Shown here: in pieces, positions 52,607 to 63,105 of the stretch
How the letters are laid out: every line of letters starts with the position of its first letter
Numbering within the stretch: position 1 is the first letter of the stretch
NCBI GenBank assembly: GCA_963848295.1
Contig: CAWKDB010000010.1
Coordinates: 2,688,001-2,752,000, forward strand
Reading direction: 5' to 3'
Source: an uncultured delta proteobacterium
GTDB taxonomy: Bacteria > Myxococcota_A > Polyangia > Haliangiales > Haliangiaceae
DNA: 64,000 bases
Notes under the pieces: model-generated
Told to the model about the DNA's origin: nothing
Database searches by the model: none
What the model saw: only the letters and a program-made list of their open reading frames with translations
Position numbers and translations under genes: made by a program

Positions 52607-54470
52607 GTGAAGCGCACCTGCCCGGCGTGTCAACGAGAGTTCGACGAAGCCGGGTTTTGCCCGTTCGACGGCACGGCGCTCCGGGAGCCCGACGTCAGTA
52701 AGCCCACCGTGCTGTCGGCGTTCGTCGACGCGCAGATGCCCCCGGCCGACACGAAGCTGCCGACCGAGCCCGATCTGCGCCGAGATCAGGACCCGACCAA
52801 CCGCGTCCGCGCGATCTCCGCGGCGGCCGCGACTCAAGACGCGCTCGACAGCATGCGCAAGCGCACCGAGTACGACTCGCTCGTCGGTGACACGCTCGAC
52901 GGCCGCTACTTCATCAAGGCGAAGATCGGCGAGGGCGGCATGGGCGTCGTGTTCGCCGCGCGCCACGCCGTGATCGAGCGGCCGCTCGCGATCAAGGTGC
53001 TGAAGCGCGAGGTGATGCGCGACACCGCGACGATCCGCCGCTTCGTACAAGAGGCGAAGGCGGCATCGCGGATCGGCCACCCGAACATCGTTGATGTCAC
53101 CGACTTCGGGACGACCCCCGAGGGCATGACCTACTCCGTGATGGAGTTCGTCGACGGCACGACGCTGGCGAAGGCGATCAAGCACGGCGCGCCTTTTCCC
53201 GCCGAACGCGCGATCCGGATCGCGTCGCAGATCGCACGGGCGCTCGGCGCGGCGCACGACAAGGGCATCGTCCACCGCGATCTCAAGCCGGAGAACGTGT
53301 TCTTGATCGACCGCGAGGGCCGCACCGACTTCGTCAAGATCGTCGACTTCGGCATCGCGAAGGTCACGCCGCTCGACGGCCAGAGCGATGGCCCGCGCCT
53401 CACCCGCGTCGGCTCGGTGTTCGGCACGCCGGAGTACATGGCGCCCGAGCAAGCGGCCGGGCGCAGCGACACCGACGGCCGGGTCGATATCTACGCGCTC
53501 GGCACGATCCTCTACGAGATGTTGTGCGGTCGCGTGCCGCACAAGAGCGACAGCATGGTCCGCACGATCGCGATGCAGATGCTCGACGAGATTCCGCTGC
53601 TGAGCGGAGCACATCCCGAGATCGAGATCGCGCCCGAGCTCGAAGACGTCGTGATGCGCGCGCTCGCCAAGAAGCGCGAGGACCGCTACCAGACGATGGC
53701 GGAGCTGCTGTCCGCGCTCGAGCGGGTCTACGACTCGATCACCGCGCCGCCGACCCGCGAGGAGCTGCTCAAGTCGTTACCGCCGTTGCCGCCCGGCGCC
53801 GATCCGATCCCGCTCGCGACCGACGGGCTCGCGACCGCCGCGACCGCCGCGCCGACCGTGCGCCGGATCCGACACGAGCCGCAGTTCGTGACCTCGGATC
53901 GCCCGATCGCGTTCGATCACCTGCTCGCCGACCAGAGCCAGCCGGTCCGCCGTGGTCGCTGGCCGATCGCGCTCGCCGTGCTCGTGGTAGCCGGCGGCGG
54001 CGCGGTCGCCGCGATCCTATTGATGCGCGGTCACGGCGACACCGTCGCGATCGTCGAGCGCGATGCCGCGCTCGCCCAGCGACGCCGCGCTCGCCCACGA
54101 CGCCGCGCTCGATGGTTCGCTCGTCGTGCTCGCCGCCGACGCCGCGATCGCGCCGCGGCCTGTGCCCGACGCCGGCCTGGTCGTCATCGACACGCCGAAC
54201 CATCGCGGCACGATCGACGTCCAGGTGTTCACGAAGCCCGACACCGCGCAGATCTACGTCGCCGGGCACTTGCGCGGCGAGAACGGCACCCACGTCGAAG
54301 AGCCGTACGGGACACGGCTCGCGATCGAGTGTCGCCAACCGGGTTACCGGGCCGGCTCGGTCGTCGTGGTGTTCGACGGCCGGCAGGAGAAGGTCCAGTG
54401 CGAGCTCGCGCGGATCAAGCGCTGCGTGCCCGGGATCAAGAACCCGTTCGACGACTGCCCACCCGACTAG
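52607..54470 (+). CDS. Hanks-type Ser/Thr kinase with N-terminal zinc ribbon, TM and PEGA-like C-terminus; +1 frameshift near 54079
   Basis: CPAC..CP.DG; GEGGMG, AIK, HRDLKPEN, DFG, APE; the C-terminus continues in ORF 54063-54470 (KNPF end). Confidence 0.9.
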
Positions 54471-55973: not shown

Positions 55974-57095
55974 TTATGGGCGATTCGAGAAGTGCTGGAC
56001 CGGGAACGGATCGGCGGTCTCGCGCGTGTTGAGCTCGTTGTCATCGGGCAGCGGCTGGACCGGGATCCCGAGCGCCATCAACCCGGCGACGTCGTTGTAG
56101 CGCAGCTCCGCGATCGCGATCGGGCGATCCGTCGCACGCACGAACCGGGTCCACTGCGCGGCCGAGTAGCGCTGCTCGCCGAACTGCGTGCCGAGGCCGA
56201 GCCGACCGGTCGACGGCGCCTCGTCCTTCGCGACCTCGTCATCGCCACCGTAGTCCGCGGCGGTCGCACGACCGGCGTGATACGCGCCGCCTGCGCCTTG
56301 CCCGTTCGCGGCCGGAGCGGCCGTCACCGTCGGAGCCGGCGCCATCTTCTCCGCCGGTTCGTACCCGCGCGGCGGCGGCGGGGGAGCCGGCTGGTCAGCC
56401 GACGCGGTCGTCTTGTCGGCGTCGTAGTGATGGCCGCTGCCCTTGGCGGCGCCGCCGTTGGTGTACGTCGGCGCGGTACCGCGGCGGCTGTCGAGATCAT
56501 CTTTGTAGTCGTAGTGATGGTTCGGGTCTTTCGCCGACGCGTCGACGTTGACATCGTCGGGGGCGACCATCTGCGGTTGACCCTGCTCTTCGAAGATCGC
56601 GACCGCGATCACGCCGACGTTGCGCGCCTTGCCCTTCTGGCCGGCGTACGAGCCGTCGACCGACGAGAATCGGAACGTCGCGACGTTGTCGGTCGAGGTG
56701 CGAAAGCCTTCGATCCGGGTCTCGCCGTACGCCGGCACGACATAGCCGCGCTTGTGGAGGTCGCCGTCTTCGCCATCGATGACGTCGAGACCATCGACCG
56801 TGACGACCGCCTCGACGCGGTTCGGCGTCGGGTTCGTCACGCGGATCGTGTAGCGCTCGCTCGCGCTGCCCTGGACGTAGAACCGATCCTTGAACGCGTA
56901 CGTCGGCTCGGTCGAGCCGTCTTCGCGGATGACCTGGACGTCGTAAGGCGCGCGGACCTTCGCGTTCGCGATCGCGAGCGCGGTGCGCGGTGCGGCGATC
57001 TGCTGACCGGGCGGGCCGGGGTTGAGATCGGCGTAGGCCGACGAGCAAGCGGCGGCGAACAGGAGCGACGCGAGGACGGTGCGGAGGCTCGACAT
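55974..57095 (-). CDS. Secreted conserved hypothetical protein
   Basis: Signal peptide; ERYTIRVTN, VDGLDVIDG, RGYVV, GVIAVAIFEE, LGTQFGE. Confidence 0.75.
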   Translation of the reverse strand: MSSLRTVLASLLFAAACSSAYADLNPGPPGQQIAAPRTALAIANAKVRAPYDVQVIREDGSTEPTYAFKDRFYVQGSASERYTIRVTNPTPNRVEAVVTVDGLDVIDGEDGDLHKRGYVVPAYGETRIEGFRTSTDNVATFRFSSVDGSYAGQKGKARNVGVIAVAIFEEQGQPQMVAPDDVNVDASAKDPNHHYDYKDDLDSRRGTAPTYTNGGAAKGSGHHYDADKTTASADQPAPPPPPRGYEPAEKMAPAPTVTAAPAANGQGAGGAYHAGRATAADYGGDDEVAKDEAPSTGRLGLGTQFGEQRYSAAQWTRFVRATDRPIAIAELRYNDVAGLMALGIPVQPLPDDNELNTRETADPFPVQHFSNRP

Positions 57096-57190: not shown

Positions 57191-57853
57191 ATGGCGCCGA
57201 AGCAAGCTCGGGGTAAGTCCAAGCCGGCGCGCGGCTCGATCGAACCGCGCCGCCCTTCGGCGGTGCGTGGCTCGGCCAAGCCGACGAAAGCCGCGCGCAG
57301 GGGGCCACCCGACGTCGTGCTGTCCGATCCGACGTTGTTCGACCCGTTGACCCCGGGCGAGACCGCCGATGCGCTGCGCACGCTCACCGAGGATCGCCGC
57401 GTCGCCACGATGGCGAAGGTCGGCCGCTACCGCGTGATCTGCACCGAGCCGCTCGTCGTCAAGCCGCCGCACTGGATGGCCGGACATCGGCTCGCGCGCG
57501 TCGTCGCATACGACTACGCGTCGGATCGCGCGGTCGATGCGTGCGTCGATCTCGATGCCGGCGTCGTCGCGCACCTCGAGCTGACTCGAGCGCAGCCGAT
57601 GTTGTCGCGCGAAGAAGAAGCGCTCGCCGTTTCGATCGCGACGCTCGACGAGCGCGTGCGCGATCGCCTGCAGCTCGGCGATGCGCCGCAGGCGACGATG
57701 CATCATTGGGGACGCCTCCCCGGCGATCTCGCGTTCGAGCGCCGCTCCGCCGCGGTCGTGTTCGGTCGCAACGATGGCCACGCGACGTTGATCGCGGTCG
57801 TCGATCTCCTCGATCAGATGGTGACGCAGGTCGTCCCCGCCGGGATGTGGTGA
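57191..57853 (+). CDS. Protein resembling copper amine oxidase N-terminal (N2/N3) domains
   Basis: DPLTPGET..A and QPMLSREE..A match the starts of CuAO N2 and N3 domains; TATAGT 7 nt upstream. Confidence 0.6.
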   Translation: MAPKQARGKSKPARGSIEPRRPSAVRGSAKPTKAARRGPPDVVLSDPTLFDPLTPGETADALRTLTEDRRVATMAKVGRYRVICTEPLVVKPPHWMAGHRLARVVAYDYASDRAVDACVDLDAGVVAHLELTRAQPMLSREEEALAVSIATLDERVRDRLQLGDAPQATMHHWGRLPGDLAFERRSAAVVFGRNDGHATLIAVVDLLDQMVTQVVPAGMW

Positions 57854-57856
57854 GCG

Positions 57857-58661
57857 ATGAGTAACCAGATCTCCGAAGCGAACTGGAAGTTCAACTGGCG
57901 GCTCACCGAGTCCGCCGGGATCATGATCTACCTCGCCGACTTCAAGGGCCGGCGCGTGTTGTGGGAAGGCTCGCTGCCGTTCGTCACCGTCGATCATCAG
58001 CACGAGACGCTCGATGTCGACAGCGATCCGGGCGAGGTCCACGGCCCGTGGTGGGTGCCGCTCGGCGCTCGCACGTTGAACGGCCCGGTCCGCGTCCAGT
58101 CGTTCCGCGGCGGCGTCGAGCTGTCGGCGAGCTTCGCGGCGGGGCCGTATCACTACACCCAGCTGTGGCGGTTCCACGACGACGGTCGGATCTCGCCGTG
58201 GCTGACGATCTTCGGGCCCGGCGTGCACGACCAGCACACGTATCACCCGCACTTCCGGTTCGACTTCGATCTCGACGGCGCGCGCGACGATGCGTTCGAG
58301 CGCTACGAAGACGGCCGCTGGCAGCGCGTCGAGCACGAGGGCTGGTTTCCGTATTCCGGCGAGGCCGACGATCACGGCAACGTGTGGCGCCAGGTCGATT
58401 TCGGCTCGCGCGCGGCGATCAACATCCGGCCCGCACACCTGGGACGACGCCGAGATGTTCGCGATCCGCTATCACGACGGCGAATGGGCGCCGTTCTCGC
58501 CGCGCAGCGCCGCGGGCAGCCAGCCGTTTCCAGCCGCGTACGTCGGCGACGAGCCGCTCGACGGCGATGACGTCACGCTGTGGTACGTCGCGCACGTCCA
58601 CTTCGATCAATCGTTTCCGTACACCGCGGGTCCGTGGATCCGCGTCGAGTGGCCGAAGTAA
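57857..58661 (+). CDS. Miniature copper amine oxidase-like catalytic domain, about 267 aa; +1 frameshift near 58430
   Basis: NWKF, GRRVL..SL, GPYHY..WRF..DGRI, HPHFRFDFDLDG, DDVTLWY..H.H. Confidence 0.7.
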
Positions 58662-58673
58662 TCAGCGCGTCGC
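58640..58673. repeat. 34-bp direct repeat, left copy
   Basis: CCGCGTCGAGTGGCCGAAGTAATCAGCGCGTCGC, identical to 59268-59301. Confidence 0.95.
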
Positions 58674-58730
58674 CGGGCTCGCGAGGGTGGCTGTGGATCG
58701 GCCTGTCGCGGAGGTGCTATGGTTGTATTG

Positions 58731-58958
58731 ATGCTGGTCATCAAGACCACCGTTCGCAACGGGCGGATCGTCGTCGACGAGCCGACGAGCCTCCCGGACG
58801 GTCGCGAGGTCGAGCTGTGCGTCGTGAACGACGACGGCATGAAGGAAGACGAGCGCGCTCGGTTGCACGCCTCGATCGCCCGCGGTCTTGCAGATGGCCG
58901 CGCCGGTCGCGAGGCCGACCTCGGAGCGTTTCTGGATCAGCTCGACGACGAATCGTGA
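58731..58958 (+). CDS. Putative antitoxin
   Basis: Small acidic ORF (VRNGRIVVDEPTSLPDG..., SIARGLAD.RAGR) GTGA-coupled to the toxin; alternative ATG at 58719. Confidence 0.75.
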   Translation: MLVIKTTVRNGRIVVDEPTSLPDGREVELCVVNDDGMKEDERARLHASIARGLADGRAGREADLGAFLDQLDDES

Positions 58959-59260
58959 AGGTCGTCCTGACCGAGGAAGCGCAGCGCCAGGCGCGCGCCG
59001 AGCGGCGGTGGTGGCGCGAGCACCGCGACGCCAAGCAGCTGTTCACCGCCGAACTGCGTAACGCGCGCGAGCTGCTCGCCAACGCGCCGAAGCACGAGGT
59101 CTACGGCTCCTTCGACGGCCAGCCCGTTCGGCGGTTGTTACTGGCGAAGACGCGTTGCCATGTCTACTACTACGTCGTCGAGCGCGAGCAGCTGGTCCGC
59201 ATCGTCGCCATCTGGGGCTCGACTCGCGGTTCGGACCCGAGCAAGGTCGAGCCGCGGTGA
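58955..59260 (+). CDS. RelE/ParE-family toxin
   Basis: MKVVLTEEA..., basic, VRRLLL..HVYY......VRIVAIW. Confidence 0.8.
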   Translation: MKVVLTEEAQRQARAERRWWREHRDAKQLFTAELRNARELLANAPKHEVYGSFDGQPVRRLLLAKTRCHVYYYVVEREQLVRIVAIWGSTRGSDPSKVEPR

Positions 59261-59267
59261 GCGCGCC

Positions 59268-59301
59268 CCGCGTCGAGTGGCCGAAGTAATCAGCGCGTCG
59301 C
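59268..59301. repeat. 34-bp direct repeat, right copy
   Basis: Identical to 58640-58673. Confidence 0.95.
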
Positions 59302-59947
59302 GTCGAACGCGGCCGAGTGCAGCCCGAACATCACCGCGATCGCGCGGTCGTCCGGATCGATCAGATCGACGCGGCCCTGCACGGCGACCGTGACGAACGG
59401 CGTGAGCCACACGCTCGCTCGGGCGCGAGCATCGATGACGCCATCGAGGTCGATGTCGGCCGGGCCCTGACTCGCGTCGAGCGCGAACACGCGTAGGCCA
59501 CCCGCGAGATCGCCGCCGAGCATGAAGCGCCCGAACGTGATCTGCTTGCCGATCGCGAGCGTGTTGCGCAAGAACGTGCCGGTCGCCGCGCTCGCTGGAC
59601 CGGTCATGTCGAGCGCGAGCACGAAGTCGTCTGCGAAGTACCAGACCGTGCGGCAGCCCGAGGTGCCAGCCGAATTCGAGGCCGCGGCCGTCGAGCTCTC
59701 CGGCCATCGGCGATCCCGTCGCGGTCCGCGCAGCCACGGGCATCGACGCCAGCGCACCTTCGACCATCGCGCGATCGGCGGTGATCGTCGTGATCCCGAG
59801 GTCGAGGCCGAGCGAGATCGGCAGTCGCCACATCCCGAACCGATGACAGTGGCGATAGCCGACGACCTTCGAGACTTCGTGACAGCTCGAGTGCGCCTCG
59901 GCGAGGTGCGGCACGAGCAGCGCGAGGACGAGCAATGCAGCCTTCAT
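59290..59947 (-). CDS. Putative small outer-membrane beta-barrel protein, module copy 1; frameshift near 59645
   Basis: MKAALLVLALLVPHLAEA signal; CHEV..VVGY..C.RFGMW; DARA...WLTP; AFDATR. Confidence 0.7.
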
Positions 59948-60411
59948 GGCGGACCTCCGCGCACACAGCCAGCGCTGGGCGGTGGCCGCGCCCGGCTCGA
60001 TCGCGCCGATGTCGACGCAGACCTCCGCGAACTGCGCCGCCGGCGTATCGCGACCGTCGCGATATTCGATGAGCTCCTGGCCGTGGCCGAGCGCGAGGAT
60101 CAGGCGCGACCGCGATCTCTTGGCCCGGATCGTACGGACGGAGCGGGACCTCGCCGCCATCGAGCCCGCGCGCGACGACCGGCAGGTTCGCGAGGTCGAC
60201 GTTCACGCGATGCTCGCAGCGATTGCCGAACGTGTAGCCGATCGACCGGGCCCATCGTGTAGCCCTGGTCGTCGCGGGTCACCGCGAGATCGAGGCAGCT
60301 CGTCGTCGCGCGTTGGCCGGGAAAACGGATCCGCCACAGGTAGTCAAACGAGCCGGCGTGGTAGCCGCAGCCGGCGACGAGCGCGACGGCGAGCGCGAGC
60401 GGGCGAGTCAT
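59944..60411 (-). CDS. Lipoprotein, module copy 1; several frameshifts
   Basis: VAGC.Y..GSF, GQR...CLD, FGNRCEH, VDLA, VCVD, W.C spread over several frames. Confidence 0.65.
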
Positions 60412-60501
60412 GCTCGACATGATCGCTACGATCGCGCCGCGACTTGCTAAGGCCGCGTGAAGGCTTCGTGGCTCAGGAAGTCTTAACGGTCGCGCCCGCG
60501 G

Positions 60502-61143
60502 TCAGCGCGTCGCGTCGAACGCGCGCAAGTGCGCGCCGAACATGACCGCGACCGCGGCGTCGTGACTGTCGAGCAGATCGACGCGGCCCTGGACGCCGAG
60601 CGTGATCCACGGCGTCAGCCAGACATCGGCCTGCGCGCGTGCATCGATGACGCCGTCGAGCGCGACCTGATCGTGCGCGACCGCGCCGGGCGGCGCGAAG
60701 TCGGTGAACCGAAACCCGCCGGCGAGATCGCCGCCGATCGTGAGTCGCCCGAACGTGTGCTGCATGCCGACGCCGAAGTCATCGCGACCGGTCGCGACGC
60801 TATCGCCGGTCAGCGGATCCGTGATCCCGAGCGCGAGCGTCAAGTCGTTGCTGACGTACCAGCCGTGCGGCAGCGAGAACCGATAGCCGAACATGAAGCC
60901 GTGCGCGTCGAGTGACCCGGACACCGGTTCCCCGGTCGCCTCGCGCGCGATCGCCATCCCGGTCGGCCGCTCGACCGCGAGCGTCGTGATCCCGAGCTCG
61001 AGCGACATCGATATCGGCACCGACCACATGCCGAACCGCCCGCAGCGGGGATAACCGACCACCTTCGCGACCTCGTGGCAGGTCGGCTCCGCCTCGGCGA
61101 GCTGCGGCACGAGCAGCGCGACGACGACCACCGCCGCCTTCAT
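60502..61143 (-). CDS. Putative small outer-membrane beta-barrel protein, module copy 2
   Basis: Signal peptide; CHEVAKVVGYPRCGRFGMW; amphipathic strands; ATGA coupling. Confidence 0.78.
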   Translation of the reverse strand: MKAAVVVVALLVPQLAEAEPTCHEVAKVVGYPRCGRFGMWSVPISMSLELGITTLAVERPTGMAIAREATGEPVSGSLDAHGFMFGYRFSLPHGWYVSNDLTLALGITDPLTGDSVATGRDDFGVGMQHTFGRLTIGGDLAGGFRFTDFAPPGAVAHDQVALDGVIDARAQADVWLTPWITLGVQGRVDLLDSHDAAVAVMFGAHLRAFDATR

Positions 61144-61604
61144 CGCGGACCTCCGACGCACACCCAGCGTTCGCTGCGCCGGCTCTCCGGCTCGAGCGCG
61201 CCGACATCGACGCAGACATCTGCGGTGTGCGCCGCGGGCGTGCCGGCCGAGTCGCGATACTCGATCTCCTCCTGACCTTCGCCGAGCGCGACGATCGCCG
61301 CGGGCCGGAGCTCGGCGTCCGGATCGTACGCGTGCAACGGCGTGACCGCGCCATCGATCCCGCGAGCGACGACGCGCAGGTTCGCGAGGTCGACCATCAC
61401 GCGGTGCTCGCAGCGATTGCCGAACGTGTAGTCGATCACCGGCCCGAGCGTGTAGCCCTGATCATCGCGGCCGACGCCGAGATCGAGACACGCACCGGCG
61501 ACGCGTTGACCGACGAACGGATGCCAGTAGTAGTCGAACGAGCTCGGCTTGTAGCTACAGCCGGCGACGACGAGCGGGGCGAGCCAGATAAGTCGATGAG
61601 CCAT
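61140..61604 (-). CDS. Lipoprotein, module copy 2
   Basis: VAGCSYKPSSF, GQR..ACLD, FGNRCEH, VCVDV, WVC. Confidence 0.8.
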   Translation of the reverse strand: MAHRLIWLAPLVVAGCSYKPSSFDYYWHPFVGQRVAGACLDLGVGRDDQGYTLGPVIDYTFGNRCEHRVMVDLANLRVVARGIDGAVTPLHAYDPDAELRPAAIVALGEGQEEIEYRDSAGTPAAHTADVCVDVGALEPESRRSERWVCVGGPR

Positions 61605-61957
61605 GACTCATGTTGGCCCGCTCGCGGATCAAAGCCACGACGCTCGGGAAATACTATCGGCCGTAAATATTAAGCGCGTTAACATCGCGTGCGCGCGAGT
61701 GTGAAGCGCGAAACATGTCGCTCTGTCGACGTCGAGCTGCGCCATCAGAATTTGCGCCAGCCGTCGCTGAAGACGCCGTGCCGGTAGACCCGAGCGTTAT
61801 ACGCGTCGATCGCGTCACGATTATCGGCGAGCCAAGCCCCGCGGTCCGCCGTGCGGATCGCGACCTCTTCGCGCGCCCACCAGGTCGGCTCTCACCGACA
61901 GATCGATCGGCGTCTTCATACGCATCATCATAATATGCGCAGGCTCTCCGGGGATGC

Positions 61958-62632
61958 TCAACGATCGCGCCCGAACGCGCGGGTATGCAGCGCGAAGTAC
62001 AAGCCGCTCGACCAGCTGCCCGCGTCGATCACGCTCGCGCCCGCGTCCGCGCCGACCGCGATCCACGGGTTCAGCCATAGCTCGCCGCGAACGCGCGCTT
62101 CGACGATGGGAACCGCGAGGCCCGTCGCGGCGGTCGCGGGATCGAACGAGACAACGCCCACACCGCCCTCGAGCTCGACCGACAACGACGCGCGGCCGGC
62201 GCGATGCCGCACACCGAGCACGCCGCCGAGCCCGACGTACGTATACGGATCCGGCGTCGTCGAGCCGCCCGACACGATGCCATCGACCGACGTCTCGATC
62301 GCGAAGTACAGATGATGCGGCAGGCCGACACCGAGTCGATCGGTGGCGCCGATCGCGAGCAAGCCAGTGCGGCGCCCCCCGGACGTCATGCCCGCGGTGC
62401 GAGCGGCGGGCGCGAACGGCACGTCGAGCTCGAGGTGCCTGACCTCCGTGCCGAGCTCGATGATCAGGTCCGGGAACCGCGCGCTGATCGACCAGACGCC
62501 AAACGGATTGCACGCCGAGAACCCGACGACCTCGCATGGGCACCGCGGCCCGACCGCGAACCCGCCGTTATCGGCACGAGCCGCGCCGGCGATCGCCGCG
62601 AGCCCGCTCGCGATGGCGACAGCGCGAATCAC
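61958..62632 (-). CDS. Putative small outer-membrane beta-barrel protein, module copy 3
   Basis: GTG start overlapping the upstream stop; CPCEVVGFSACNPFGVW; EAR...WLNPW; HTRAFG. Confidence 0.75.
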   Translation of the reverse strand: MIRAVAIASGLAAIAGAARADNGGFAVGPRCPCEVVGFSACNPFGVWSISARFPDLIIELGTEVRHLELDVPFAPAARTAGMTSGGRRTGLLAIGATDRLGVGLPHHLYFAIETSVDGIVSGGSTTPDPYTYVGLGGVLGVRHRAGRASLSVELEGGVGVVSFDPATAATGLAVPIVEARVRGELWLNPWIAVGADAGASVIDAGSWSSGLYFALHTRAFGRDR

Positions 62633-63078
62633 GGCGTCACCGCCAGGCGGCCATCGCCGAAGCACATCCATTGCGCAGCCGTCGCGTGCGCGATCGGCGC
62701 GACGTCGACGCACACCGCAGCGAGCTCGCCCGGCCCGGCGTCGTACGCGATCACCTCGCGCCCGGCCATTCGACCGTCGATCGGCAGCGCGCGCAGCTCG
62801 TTCCGGAGATCGACCGGCGCCATCGCGAGCTCACGACCATCGCCGGTCCGGCCAACCACGTGCACCGCGGCGAGATCGACGACGGTCGGATGATCGCAAC
62901 GATTGCCGAAGTCGTACTCGAGCTCGGCGATCCCATCGCGCTCGCTCCGCCCGGCGACCGAAACATCGAGGCAGCCCAGCGTCGCGCGCTGCCCCGGGAA
63001 ATCGATGGCGAGCCGGCGGAACGATCCGGGCTGGTAGGCACAACCGGTGATCGCGACGAGCGAGACGACGCAGCGCAT
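62629..63078 (-). CDS. Lipoprotein, module copy 3
   Basis: ITGCAYQPGSF, GQRATLGCLD, FGNRCDH, VCVDV, WMC. Confidence 0.8.
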   Translation of the reverse strand: MRCVVSLVAITGCAYQPGSFRRLAIDFPGQRATLGCLDVSVAGRSERDGIAELEYDFGNRCDHPTVVDLAAVHVVGRTGDGRELAMAPVDLRNELRALPIDGRMAGREVIAYDAGPGELAAVCVDVAPIAHATAAQWMCFGDGRLAVTP

Positions 63079-63089
63079 ACCCGCCGCAT

Positions 63090-63105
63090 AGCAAGACGTC
63101 GGCCG
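63090..63105 (-). promoter_or_regulatory. Putative sigma-54 -24/-12 promoter
   Basis: CGGCCGACGTCTTGCT (GG-N10-GC) just upstream of the ATG at 63078. Confidence 0.4.

Follow-up and report, generated by a model that had tools for sequence, protein, structure and literature searches.

The window analysed here is a stretch of 64,000 nucleotides (nt) from the genome of an uncultured delta proteobacterium of the family Haliangiaceae (contig CAWKDB010000010.1), and the subject of this report is a pair of adjacent genes on its forward strand at 57191..58661. Our analysis revealed that the pair shares the fold of copper amine oxidases (CuAOs) yet departs from them in four defining features, and that its two genes form a conserved unit on which purifying selection acts. 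CuAOs are single-chain homodimeric enzymes with the cofactor topaquinone (TPQ) and a strictly conserved site. We give about even chances to the reading that the pair encodes a cytoplasmic heterodimeric metalloenzyme of a non-quinone type, in which the metal would be held by four histidines of the second subunit (H130, H132, H246 and H248, hereafter His4) on the sheet face opposite to the old copper site.

A split and trimmed amine oxidase fold

Gene 1 (57191..57853, forward strand) encodes subunit A, of 220 amino acids (aa), which has a basic disordered N-terminal tail followed by the CuAO domains D2 and D3 (N2/N3) at about residues 46-220, and which carries the motifs DPLTPGE (residues 51-57) and QPMLSREE (residues 135-142). 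Gene 2 (57857..58661, forward strand) begins 3 nt downstream of the gene 1 stop codon and encodes subunit B, a compact CuAO D4 beta-supersandwich that measures 267 aa in relatives with an unbroken gene. Its PF01179 score is above the cut-off of the family, and no second PF01179 match was found in the same genome, which is 85% complete. The first frame of gene 2 carries NWKF, GRRVLWEGSL, GPYHYTQLWRFHDDGRI and HPHFRFDFDLDG; the C-terminal part, including DDVTLWYVAHVH, lies in a different frame with its end at 58661. The earlier note on this stretch had described the two genes with these motifs, the 3-nt gap, a frameshift and the lack of signal peptides, all of which were confirmed in the sequence. 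Signal-like hydrophobic stretches are absent from both products (the KD11 maximum is -0.03 in subunit A and 0.49 in subunit B), and KD11 exceeds 1.5 in 3 of 120 gene 1 homologues and 0 of 120 gene 2 homologues (the three signal-bearing control relatives reach 2.3-3.2). The complex is predicted to be cytoplasmic.

The frame break of gene 2 lies at an extra base in a run of C (58430..58433, forward strand), as revealed by DNA alignment. In relatives gene 2 runs in one frame (78 of 79 testable relatives are unbroken, and one further locus is truncated by a contig end). A 232-nt contig from run X1 is identical to the window except for one base omitted at 58433, and the neighbouring insertion is also present unchanged in this run; the support for the omission is a single contig of depth 4.5, possibly from the source sample. 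Because this otherwise identical contig is without the extra base, the frame break is probably a sequencing or assembly error. Modelling of gene 2 was therefore done on an intact relative of 267 aa (P0124; 97% identity over residues 1-191 and 100% over the remainder).

The gene 2 model (predicted local distance difference test, pLDDT, 89.9; predicted TM-score, pTM, 0.88) superposes on residues 234-619 of AGAO with a VIA Z of 25.1 (root-mean-square deviation, rmsd, 2.5; 253 of 267 residues aligned). Eight CuAO entries reach Z 23-25 to this model, followed at about 14-15 by supersandwiches of the mutarotase-like type. With the PF01179 score, this fold match puts the resemblance to CuAOs above what chance would give. 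For gene 1, the model (pLDDT 76) consists of the basic disordered tail and two alpha/beta domains, which match CuAO D2+D3 in AGAO by Foldseek (E 2.4e-7) and residues 97-283 of ECAO with a VIA Z of 11.1 (rmsd 7.4, 161 aligned). These comparisons bear out the split, miniaturised CuAO fold that the earlier note had proposed. The set and order of domains, D2-D3-D4, and the D4 fold are the same as in AGAO (PDB 1rjo, 1av4), TynA/ECAO (1d6u) and PF01179 proteins with N2/N3. In contrast to CuAOs, which have one chain of 620-750 aa, the pair has two genes with chains of 220 and 267 aa (about 490 aa in total) and is without the long D4 insertions in the alignments; its D4 is about 140 residues shorter than the corresponding AGAO span. 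CuAO chains, of 70-80 kDa, pair as homodimers through beta-hairpin arms. The pair further differs in its His4 cluster, its inner H47 and H124, its cytoplasmic prediction and its basic N-terminal tail.

A complex prediction for the pair, a check that the earlier note had suggested, gave a heterodimer with a score of 0.81 (best control 0.01), which passes a mark that 116 of 157 solved pairs and 2 of 215 mismatched pairs also reach; the runs share at least 66% of contacts and the partner pLDDT is at least 89. The predicted interface places residues 167-176, 188 and 190 of subunit A over residues 45-47, 61-68 (including W65/W66), 95-98 and 122-124 of subunit B. The gene products are thus predicted to form a heterodimer in which D3 caps the old TPQ loop, as D3 does in TPQ CuAOs. 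The list of interface residues does not include 130, 132, 246, 248, 197 and 199, and an unnamed residue is to be read as uncertain.

The pair is widespread in its order. There are 181 homologues of gene 2 among 257 candidates, from Kofleriaceae, Haliangium and other Myxococcota, and the 120 listed are nearly all 264-292 aa long. Within the order, 115 of 125 genomes carry gene 2 (the 115 include two unpublished ones, G363 and G310), and within the family 111 of 117 do, in most cases as a single match. In a sample of 301 genomes of the phylum, 11 other matches lay outside the order, and those inspected are other forms. Both genes are present in 98 of 100 genome loci, as separate open reading frames (ORFs) in 98 of 98, mostly overlapping or at most 10 nt apart, and in 80 metagenome loci gene 1 is adjacent and separate in 77 of the 77 having upstream room; the placement of the N-domains on a separate gene, as described in the earlier note, is conserved. 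In the comparison with the nearest relative (L001), the ratio of nonsynonymous to synonymous substitution rates (dN/dS), which comes from this one sequence pair only, is 0.035 for gene 1, and 0.074 and 0 for the two parts of gene 2. A cultured carrier is Haliangium ochraceum (Hoch_6831). No fused close form was present among the top 150 of the 637 representatives matched in the wider search described below; for gene 1, the sole longer match among 8000 scored candidates is an N-terminally extended ORF without D4, which is weak evidence on fused forms. No relatives were found in viral contigs.

The old copper and quinone site

In the available part of PMC3382800, CuAOs are defined by three strictly conserved copper histidines (AGAO H431, H433 and H592), and also by the motif T-x-x-N-Y-D/E, an invariant Asp base (AGAO D298, ECAO D383) and an O4-binding Tyr; HPAO Tyr305, at the position of ECAO Y369, contacts the cofactor and forms a hydrogen bond with TPQ O4. 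The pair has the D4 beta-sandwich and the D2/D3 alpha/beta domains, split over two genes, but retains one of the three copper histidines (H127) and has neither the T-x-x-N-Y-D/E motif, nor the catalytic Asp, nor the O4-binding Tyr.

This assignment depends on the alignment register. A family profile rich in members with a canonical site aligned with AGAO (E 1e-24) without gaps across HQHIFSARLD and DIVVWHTFGLTH. The alignment with E. coli TynA was likewise gapless. On TynA, H47 corresponds to Y369, P97 to N465, Y98 to Y466, H127 to H524, Y129 to H526 and F249 to H689. H124, H127 (the retained ligand H524) and Y129 (the lost ligand H526) lie at 58226..58243 on the forward strand, and each is kept in 137 of 138 sequences of the clade, a set that may include near-duplicates; H127 is Gln in one divergent member. 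Position 249, the third copper ligand, is Tyr in 82, Phe in 51 and His in 5 of the 138. The earlier note had taken the HPH and HVH motifs as the copper ligands, but H130, H132, H246 and H248 correspond to I527, N529, G686 and T688, none of which is a ligand position. Reading HPH as the copper HxH would need a 3-residue gap in a continuous strand, and this register was rejected. The gapped strand appeared in single-sequence or shallow comparisons (with pea CuAO by phmmer and with ECAO by the A3 profile), while the gapless register was given by the A3 profile to human DAO, by deeper profiles and by covariation of 129 with 249.

Distant relatives point to the same register. Searching 1.84 billion representatives with a profile gave 637 matches, the best 150 of which yielded 109 rows spanning the domain, and 106 distant rows were used after dropping P0124 and two fragments of the window's clade. 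Tyr98, H127, H129 and H249 are all present in 57 of these 106 compact relatives. Among the 58 relatives with H129, H249 is found in 57 and Tyr98 in all 58 (the P-values overstate this association, as kin are not independent). Because H129, H249 and Tyr98 co-occur in distant relatives, the canonical site is placed at 127/129/249.

The TPQ precursor position, Tyr98 (TynA Y466; codon TAT at 58148..58150, forward strand), is not constrained to Tyr in the clade. It is Tyr in 112, Phe in 25 and Ala in 1 of the 138 sequences, with 15 parsimony changes compared with 0-3 at the histidines, and Phe is also found there in 18 of 120 homologues and 9 of 80 metagenome loci. The motif region here reads A-G-P-Y/F-x, in which the residue after Tyr98, the His of PYHY, is variable (Arg in 68 and His in 26 of 138); in the homologues the HPH histidines are near-invariant, whereas the Tyr and the His that follows it vary. 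The region of the catalytic Asp is much shortened, as noticed earlier: D383 maps at or near G70, on the edge of a deletion, and a conserved acid is absent from residues 63-72. The earlier claim that the precursor Tyr and all three copper ligands are kept is thus not borne out: of the ligands H127 remains, H526 and H689 are replaced by Y129 and F/Y249, and Tyr98 gives way to Phe in 25 of 138. Since the hydroxyl at position 98 is dispensable, formation of TPQ, and with it the proposed two-subunit quinoprotein, appears very unlikely from these sequences; speaking against this, the single-sequence and shallow-profile comparisons opened a gap in the strand where the earlier note had.

A CuAO fold has been split, trimmed and kept under strong selection without its canonical site across nearly all genomes of an abundant, barely cultured predatory family, so that database entries naming these proteins 'Cu2+-containing amine oxidase' or the like probably mislabel them. 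In a protein atlas they carry automatic names only. No description of the window's clade was found in the literature searched, which left subscription journals mostly outside and did not cover supplements; in the available part of PMC12058724, forms lacking the motif are covered for plant and animal CuAOs only.

A candidate metal site on the other face and its rivals

The two halves of the His4 cluster are H130-P-H132 (58244..58252, forward strand) and H246-V-H248 (58593..58604, forward strand, together with F249). H130 and H246 are present in 138 of 138 sequences, H132 in 136 and H248 in 134, and H130, H132 and H246 are kept in 80 of 80 metagenome loci. H47, H130 and H246 never vary in either set. 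The acids D197-A-E199 (58446..58454, forward strand; 137 of 138 each) lie on the next strand and are possible second-shell or bridging residues, their geometry being uncertain, and R134 also belongs to this outer-face set. Both histidine strands are unbroken in the model (127-137 and 239-248). Coevolution gave a best strand register of i+j=376 (mean z 2.0; effective number of sequences, Meff, 115), in which H130 and H246 are cross-strand partners, and the top coevolving pairs include P131-A245 and Y129-F249. From the sequence register, the canonical triad 127/129/249 can be described as i, i+2 and the partner of i, and 130/132/246 would repeat this pattern three residues along. Because of this shift, strand alternation would turn the new triad to the sheet face opposite the canonical one, and we infer the facing and clustering of the His4 from the same register and alternation. 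A contiguous triad H130-H246-E199 was weakened as a candidate, since coevolution favours a sum of 441 for E199 and places it opposite W242.

The mechanism that we propose would start from the D2/D3 and compact D4 halves as separate chains, which would assemble into a heterodimer with D3 capping the old cavity. A divalent metal would sit on H130, H132 and H246, with H248 as the fourth ligand, in a groove exposed by the loss of the CuAO insertions. In the cytoplasm this metal would more probably be Zn, Mn, Fe or Ni than Cu, and it may act as a Lewis acid in the hydrolysis or isomerisation of an anionic substrate, with the tail of subunit A tethering the complex to nucleic acid or another polyanion. 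The chemistry and the tethering are the weakest part of the proposal and are offered tentatively, as less probable than the site itself. Equally tentative is the wider suggestion that the metal site has turned through the sheet, the triad being lost on the inner face and rebuilt three residues along as His4 in the ancestral groove of the supersandwich, which mutarotases use; the pair would then represent a new class of two-subunit metalloenzyme, held on nucleic acid by a histone-H1-like tail, in the core genome of the Kofleriaceae/Haliangium predators. Should the His4 groove prove to be the functional site, the pair would be a clean natural case of an active site that has crossed a sheet, and it might connect the amine oxidase and mutarotase branches of the supersandwich fold. 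The fallback of the earlier note, a copper protein with different chemistry, fits these data when read as a metal protein.

Several observations weigh against the outer metal site. The face assignment comes from strand alternation and shallow coevolution, which does not put E199 beside H246. H132 is Cys or Tyr in 2 of 138 sequences, and H248 is Pro or Asn in 4. H130, H246 and D/E199 occur together in 41 of the 57 relatives with a canonical copper site, where position 132 is mostly Tyr; because H130 and H246 are common in such relatives, they could be structural. The heterodimer prediction can be explained by likeness to solved single-chain CuAOs, in which case it would speak for likeness and not for binding. 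The neighbouring genes give no clue to a substrate or pathway. Finally, a second near-invariant set, H47, W66, Q102, H124, H127 and Y129, could be the real site.

This last possibility is the strongest rival, although we regard it as distinctly less probable than the outer site. The remodelled old cavity would be the working site, where H47, H124 and H127 (with Y129, Y/F249, W66, Q102 and H171 of subunit A) would hold a metal or a substrate beneath the lid formed by D3, while the histidines of the outer face would be structural or oligomerising. The inner set, to which D46 and Q48 also belong, is near-invariant: H47, W66 and Q102 are present in 138 of 138 sequences, and H124, H127 and Y129 in 137. 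H47 (in D46-H47-Q48, 57992..58000, forward strand; also 80 of 80 metagenome loci) stands in place of the active-site Tyr369 of TynA, and in the alignment of distant relatives 96 of 108 rows have Tyr at position 47. The predicted cover by subunit A resembles a substrate channel, and subunit A is always retained. However, H47 occupies a position that contacts the cofactor, not one that binds metal, H127 is replaced in one divergent member, and the clade-specific H132 and H248 would be left unexplained. Both TPQ CuAOs and the pair have the equivalents of H524 and of D533, D535 and D678, which are here D136 and D138 (58262..58270, forward strand) and D238 (58569-58571), kept in 136-138 of 138 sequences; we take these acids to be the structural Ca site of TynA, and D138-D238 is among the top coevolving pairs.

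Almost on a par with the inner cavity is a non-catalytic pseudoenzyme, a scaffold for sensing or buffering a metal or ligand that is possibly associated with the nucleoid through its H1-like tail. The tail (57191..57322, forward strand; pLDDT about 50) is rich in Lys, Arg, Ala and Pro, and is variable in sequence and length with a conserved composition: in 88 orthologues it has a median of 49 aa (22-160), with fractions of 0.21 for K, 0.26 for K+R and 0.05 for D+E. Such tails are rare in the window's own genome, where a comparable filter selects 8 ORF segments from about 5400 likely ORFs, and the frames of some of these are doubtful. The tail may bind nucleic acid or a polyanion. The pseudoenzyme would agree with this kept composition, with the loss of all canonical catalytic features and with near-universal, mostly single-copy retention. 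Against it, no DNA-binding domain is present, the tail is just 22 aa in some members, and the two dense invariant polar clusters look more enzyme-like, as clusters of this kind are more typical of enzymes.

As a separate observation, a few other proteins with H1-like Lys/Ala-rich N-terminal tails in the window's own genome (G000) are encoded at C10:310862 (-), C11:470714 (+), C10:3316006 (-) and C10:770278 (-); one of these proteins is 868 aa long and one has a helicase-like motif.

A metal-free acid-base isomerase like galactose mutarotase, with H130 as the cleft His, is improbable. Galactose mutarotase/aldose 1-epimerase (GalM, PF01263) has the same beta-supersandwich and is among the next-best folds (Z 14.5, rmsd 3.4, 219 aligned), and hhalign placed H130 on H175 of E. 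coli GalM in all three profile comparisons. H175 is presumably equivalent to L. lactis His170, which we take to be the acid catalyst. GalM has no D2/D3 partner and is not known to need a metal, while four histidines with acids would better suit one. The hhalign scores were 19-28, with probabilities of just 0.7-8%, and against the H129 profile, for which the real score was 23.2, 15 shuffled controls gave 10-20. Neither gene 2 piece nor P0124 matched PF01263, and the regions of GalM H104, D245 and E309 did not align with the gene 2 profiles. In the available part of PMC5622589, the L. lactis enzyme has an open-cleft site with Arg71, His96, His170, Asp243 and Glu304. Mutarotase homology was rejected at these probabilities and is kept as a weak lead.

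Still less credible is a two-subunit copper amine oxidase with a rewritten motif and TPQ or a related quinone. The fold, the domain order, Tyr98 in 112 of 138 sequences, the kept H127 and the full site in distant relatives speak for it. The replacement of the H526 and H689 equivalents, the changes of Tyr98 to Phe, the loss of the Asn, Asp/Glu and Y369 equivalents, the missing acid in 63-72 and the predicted position of HPH/HVH on the other face from Tyr98 all stand against it. The earlier note also raised the possibility of decay, by which the pair would be the remnant of an amine oxidase gene that used to be full-length. The frameshift and the fused forms among distant relatives speak for it, but it is hardly tenable, given the separate ORFs in all 98 genome and 77 metagenome loci, the dN/dS of 0-0.07, the extra base missing from an otherwise identical contig and the lack of a fused close form in the search above.

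Relatives and neighbourhood of the pair

An uncharacterised compact CuAO-like family (P0352, P0365, P0284 and others), on which no paper was found in the literature searched, has the same D4 of about 260 aa and the common residues H130, H246 and D/E199, with the motifs G-W-Y-R-Y, HxHH and W-Y-x-x-H-x-x-H. Its gene-1-like D2/D3 is split or fused (probability 81%), and fused single-chain forms exist among the distant relatives. Unlike the window's clade, this family keeps Tyr98, H127, H129 and H249 (in the 57 of 106 given above), and many members have signal-like N-termini. In a FastTree phylogeny (264 columns, rooted on TynA), the window's clade has a support of 0.96, or 1.0 together with the nearest outgroup, P0247, for which no locus was found. 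The clade and P0247 fall among Tyr129 lineages without a copper site, apart from the canonical-site clade (0.997), and among the Tyr129 lineages only the window's clade conserves H47, H124, H132 and H248.

Two large groups stand out among these relatives. In P0284, P0352, P0365, L086 and other members of the compact family, G-W/x-Y-R-Y replaces N-Y-D-Y, and there is an extra set H130/H246/D199 that AGAO and TynA lack; judged by their motifs, the compact proteins with the copper site are real candidates for minimal TPQ enzymes. In P0261, P0262, P0269, P0271, P0351, P0371 and others, secreted-type compact domains have lost all of the His sites and are fused to what read as cell-surface modules (dockerin-like and PKD-like), which suggests a non-catalytic binding use of the fold.

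The flanks conserved in the family include a Ser/Thr kinase, a PEGA protein, a SEC-C protein, a divergent 373-aa secreted-type protein and ORFs that resemble, from their sequence, subunits of 2-oxoacid:ferredoxin oxidoreductase. They differ in other genera and look like plain synteny. The 373-aa protein (55974-57095, reverse strand) belongs to no Pfam or NCBIfam family and adjoins the pair in 73 of 81 loci. In the Ser/Thr kinase (52607-54467, forward strand), a frame change relative to L001 near 54040-54114 is probably a second assembly frameshift.

Downstream, a ParE-type toxin-antitoxin pair lies within 58640-59301 (antitoxin-like ORF at 58719-58958, ParE at 58955-59260, PF05016). On either side of it stands an exact 34-nt direct repeat, a duplication of the 3' end of gene 2. 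As the toxin-antitoxin pair is absent in the close relative L001, it has the look of an insertion that arrived recently and duplicated its target. Beyond it, 59290-63100 (reverse strand) holds a tandem array of paralogous pairs, each of a lipoprotein-like ORF and a secreted outer-membrane-like protein; one copy, at about 59.3-60.4 kb, has a frameshift and is divergent, with 53% identity to 60502-61161.
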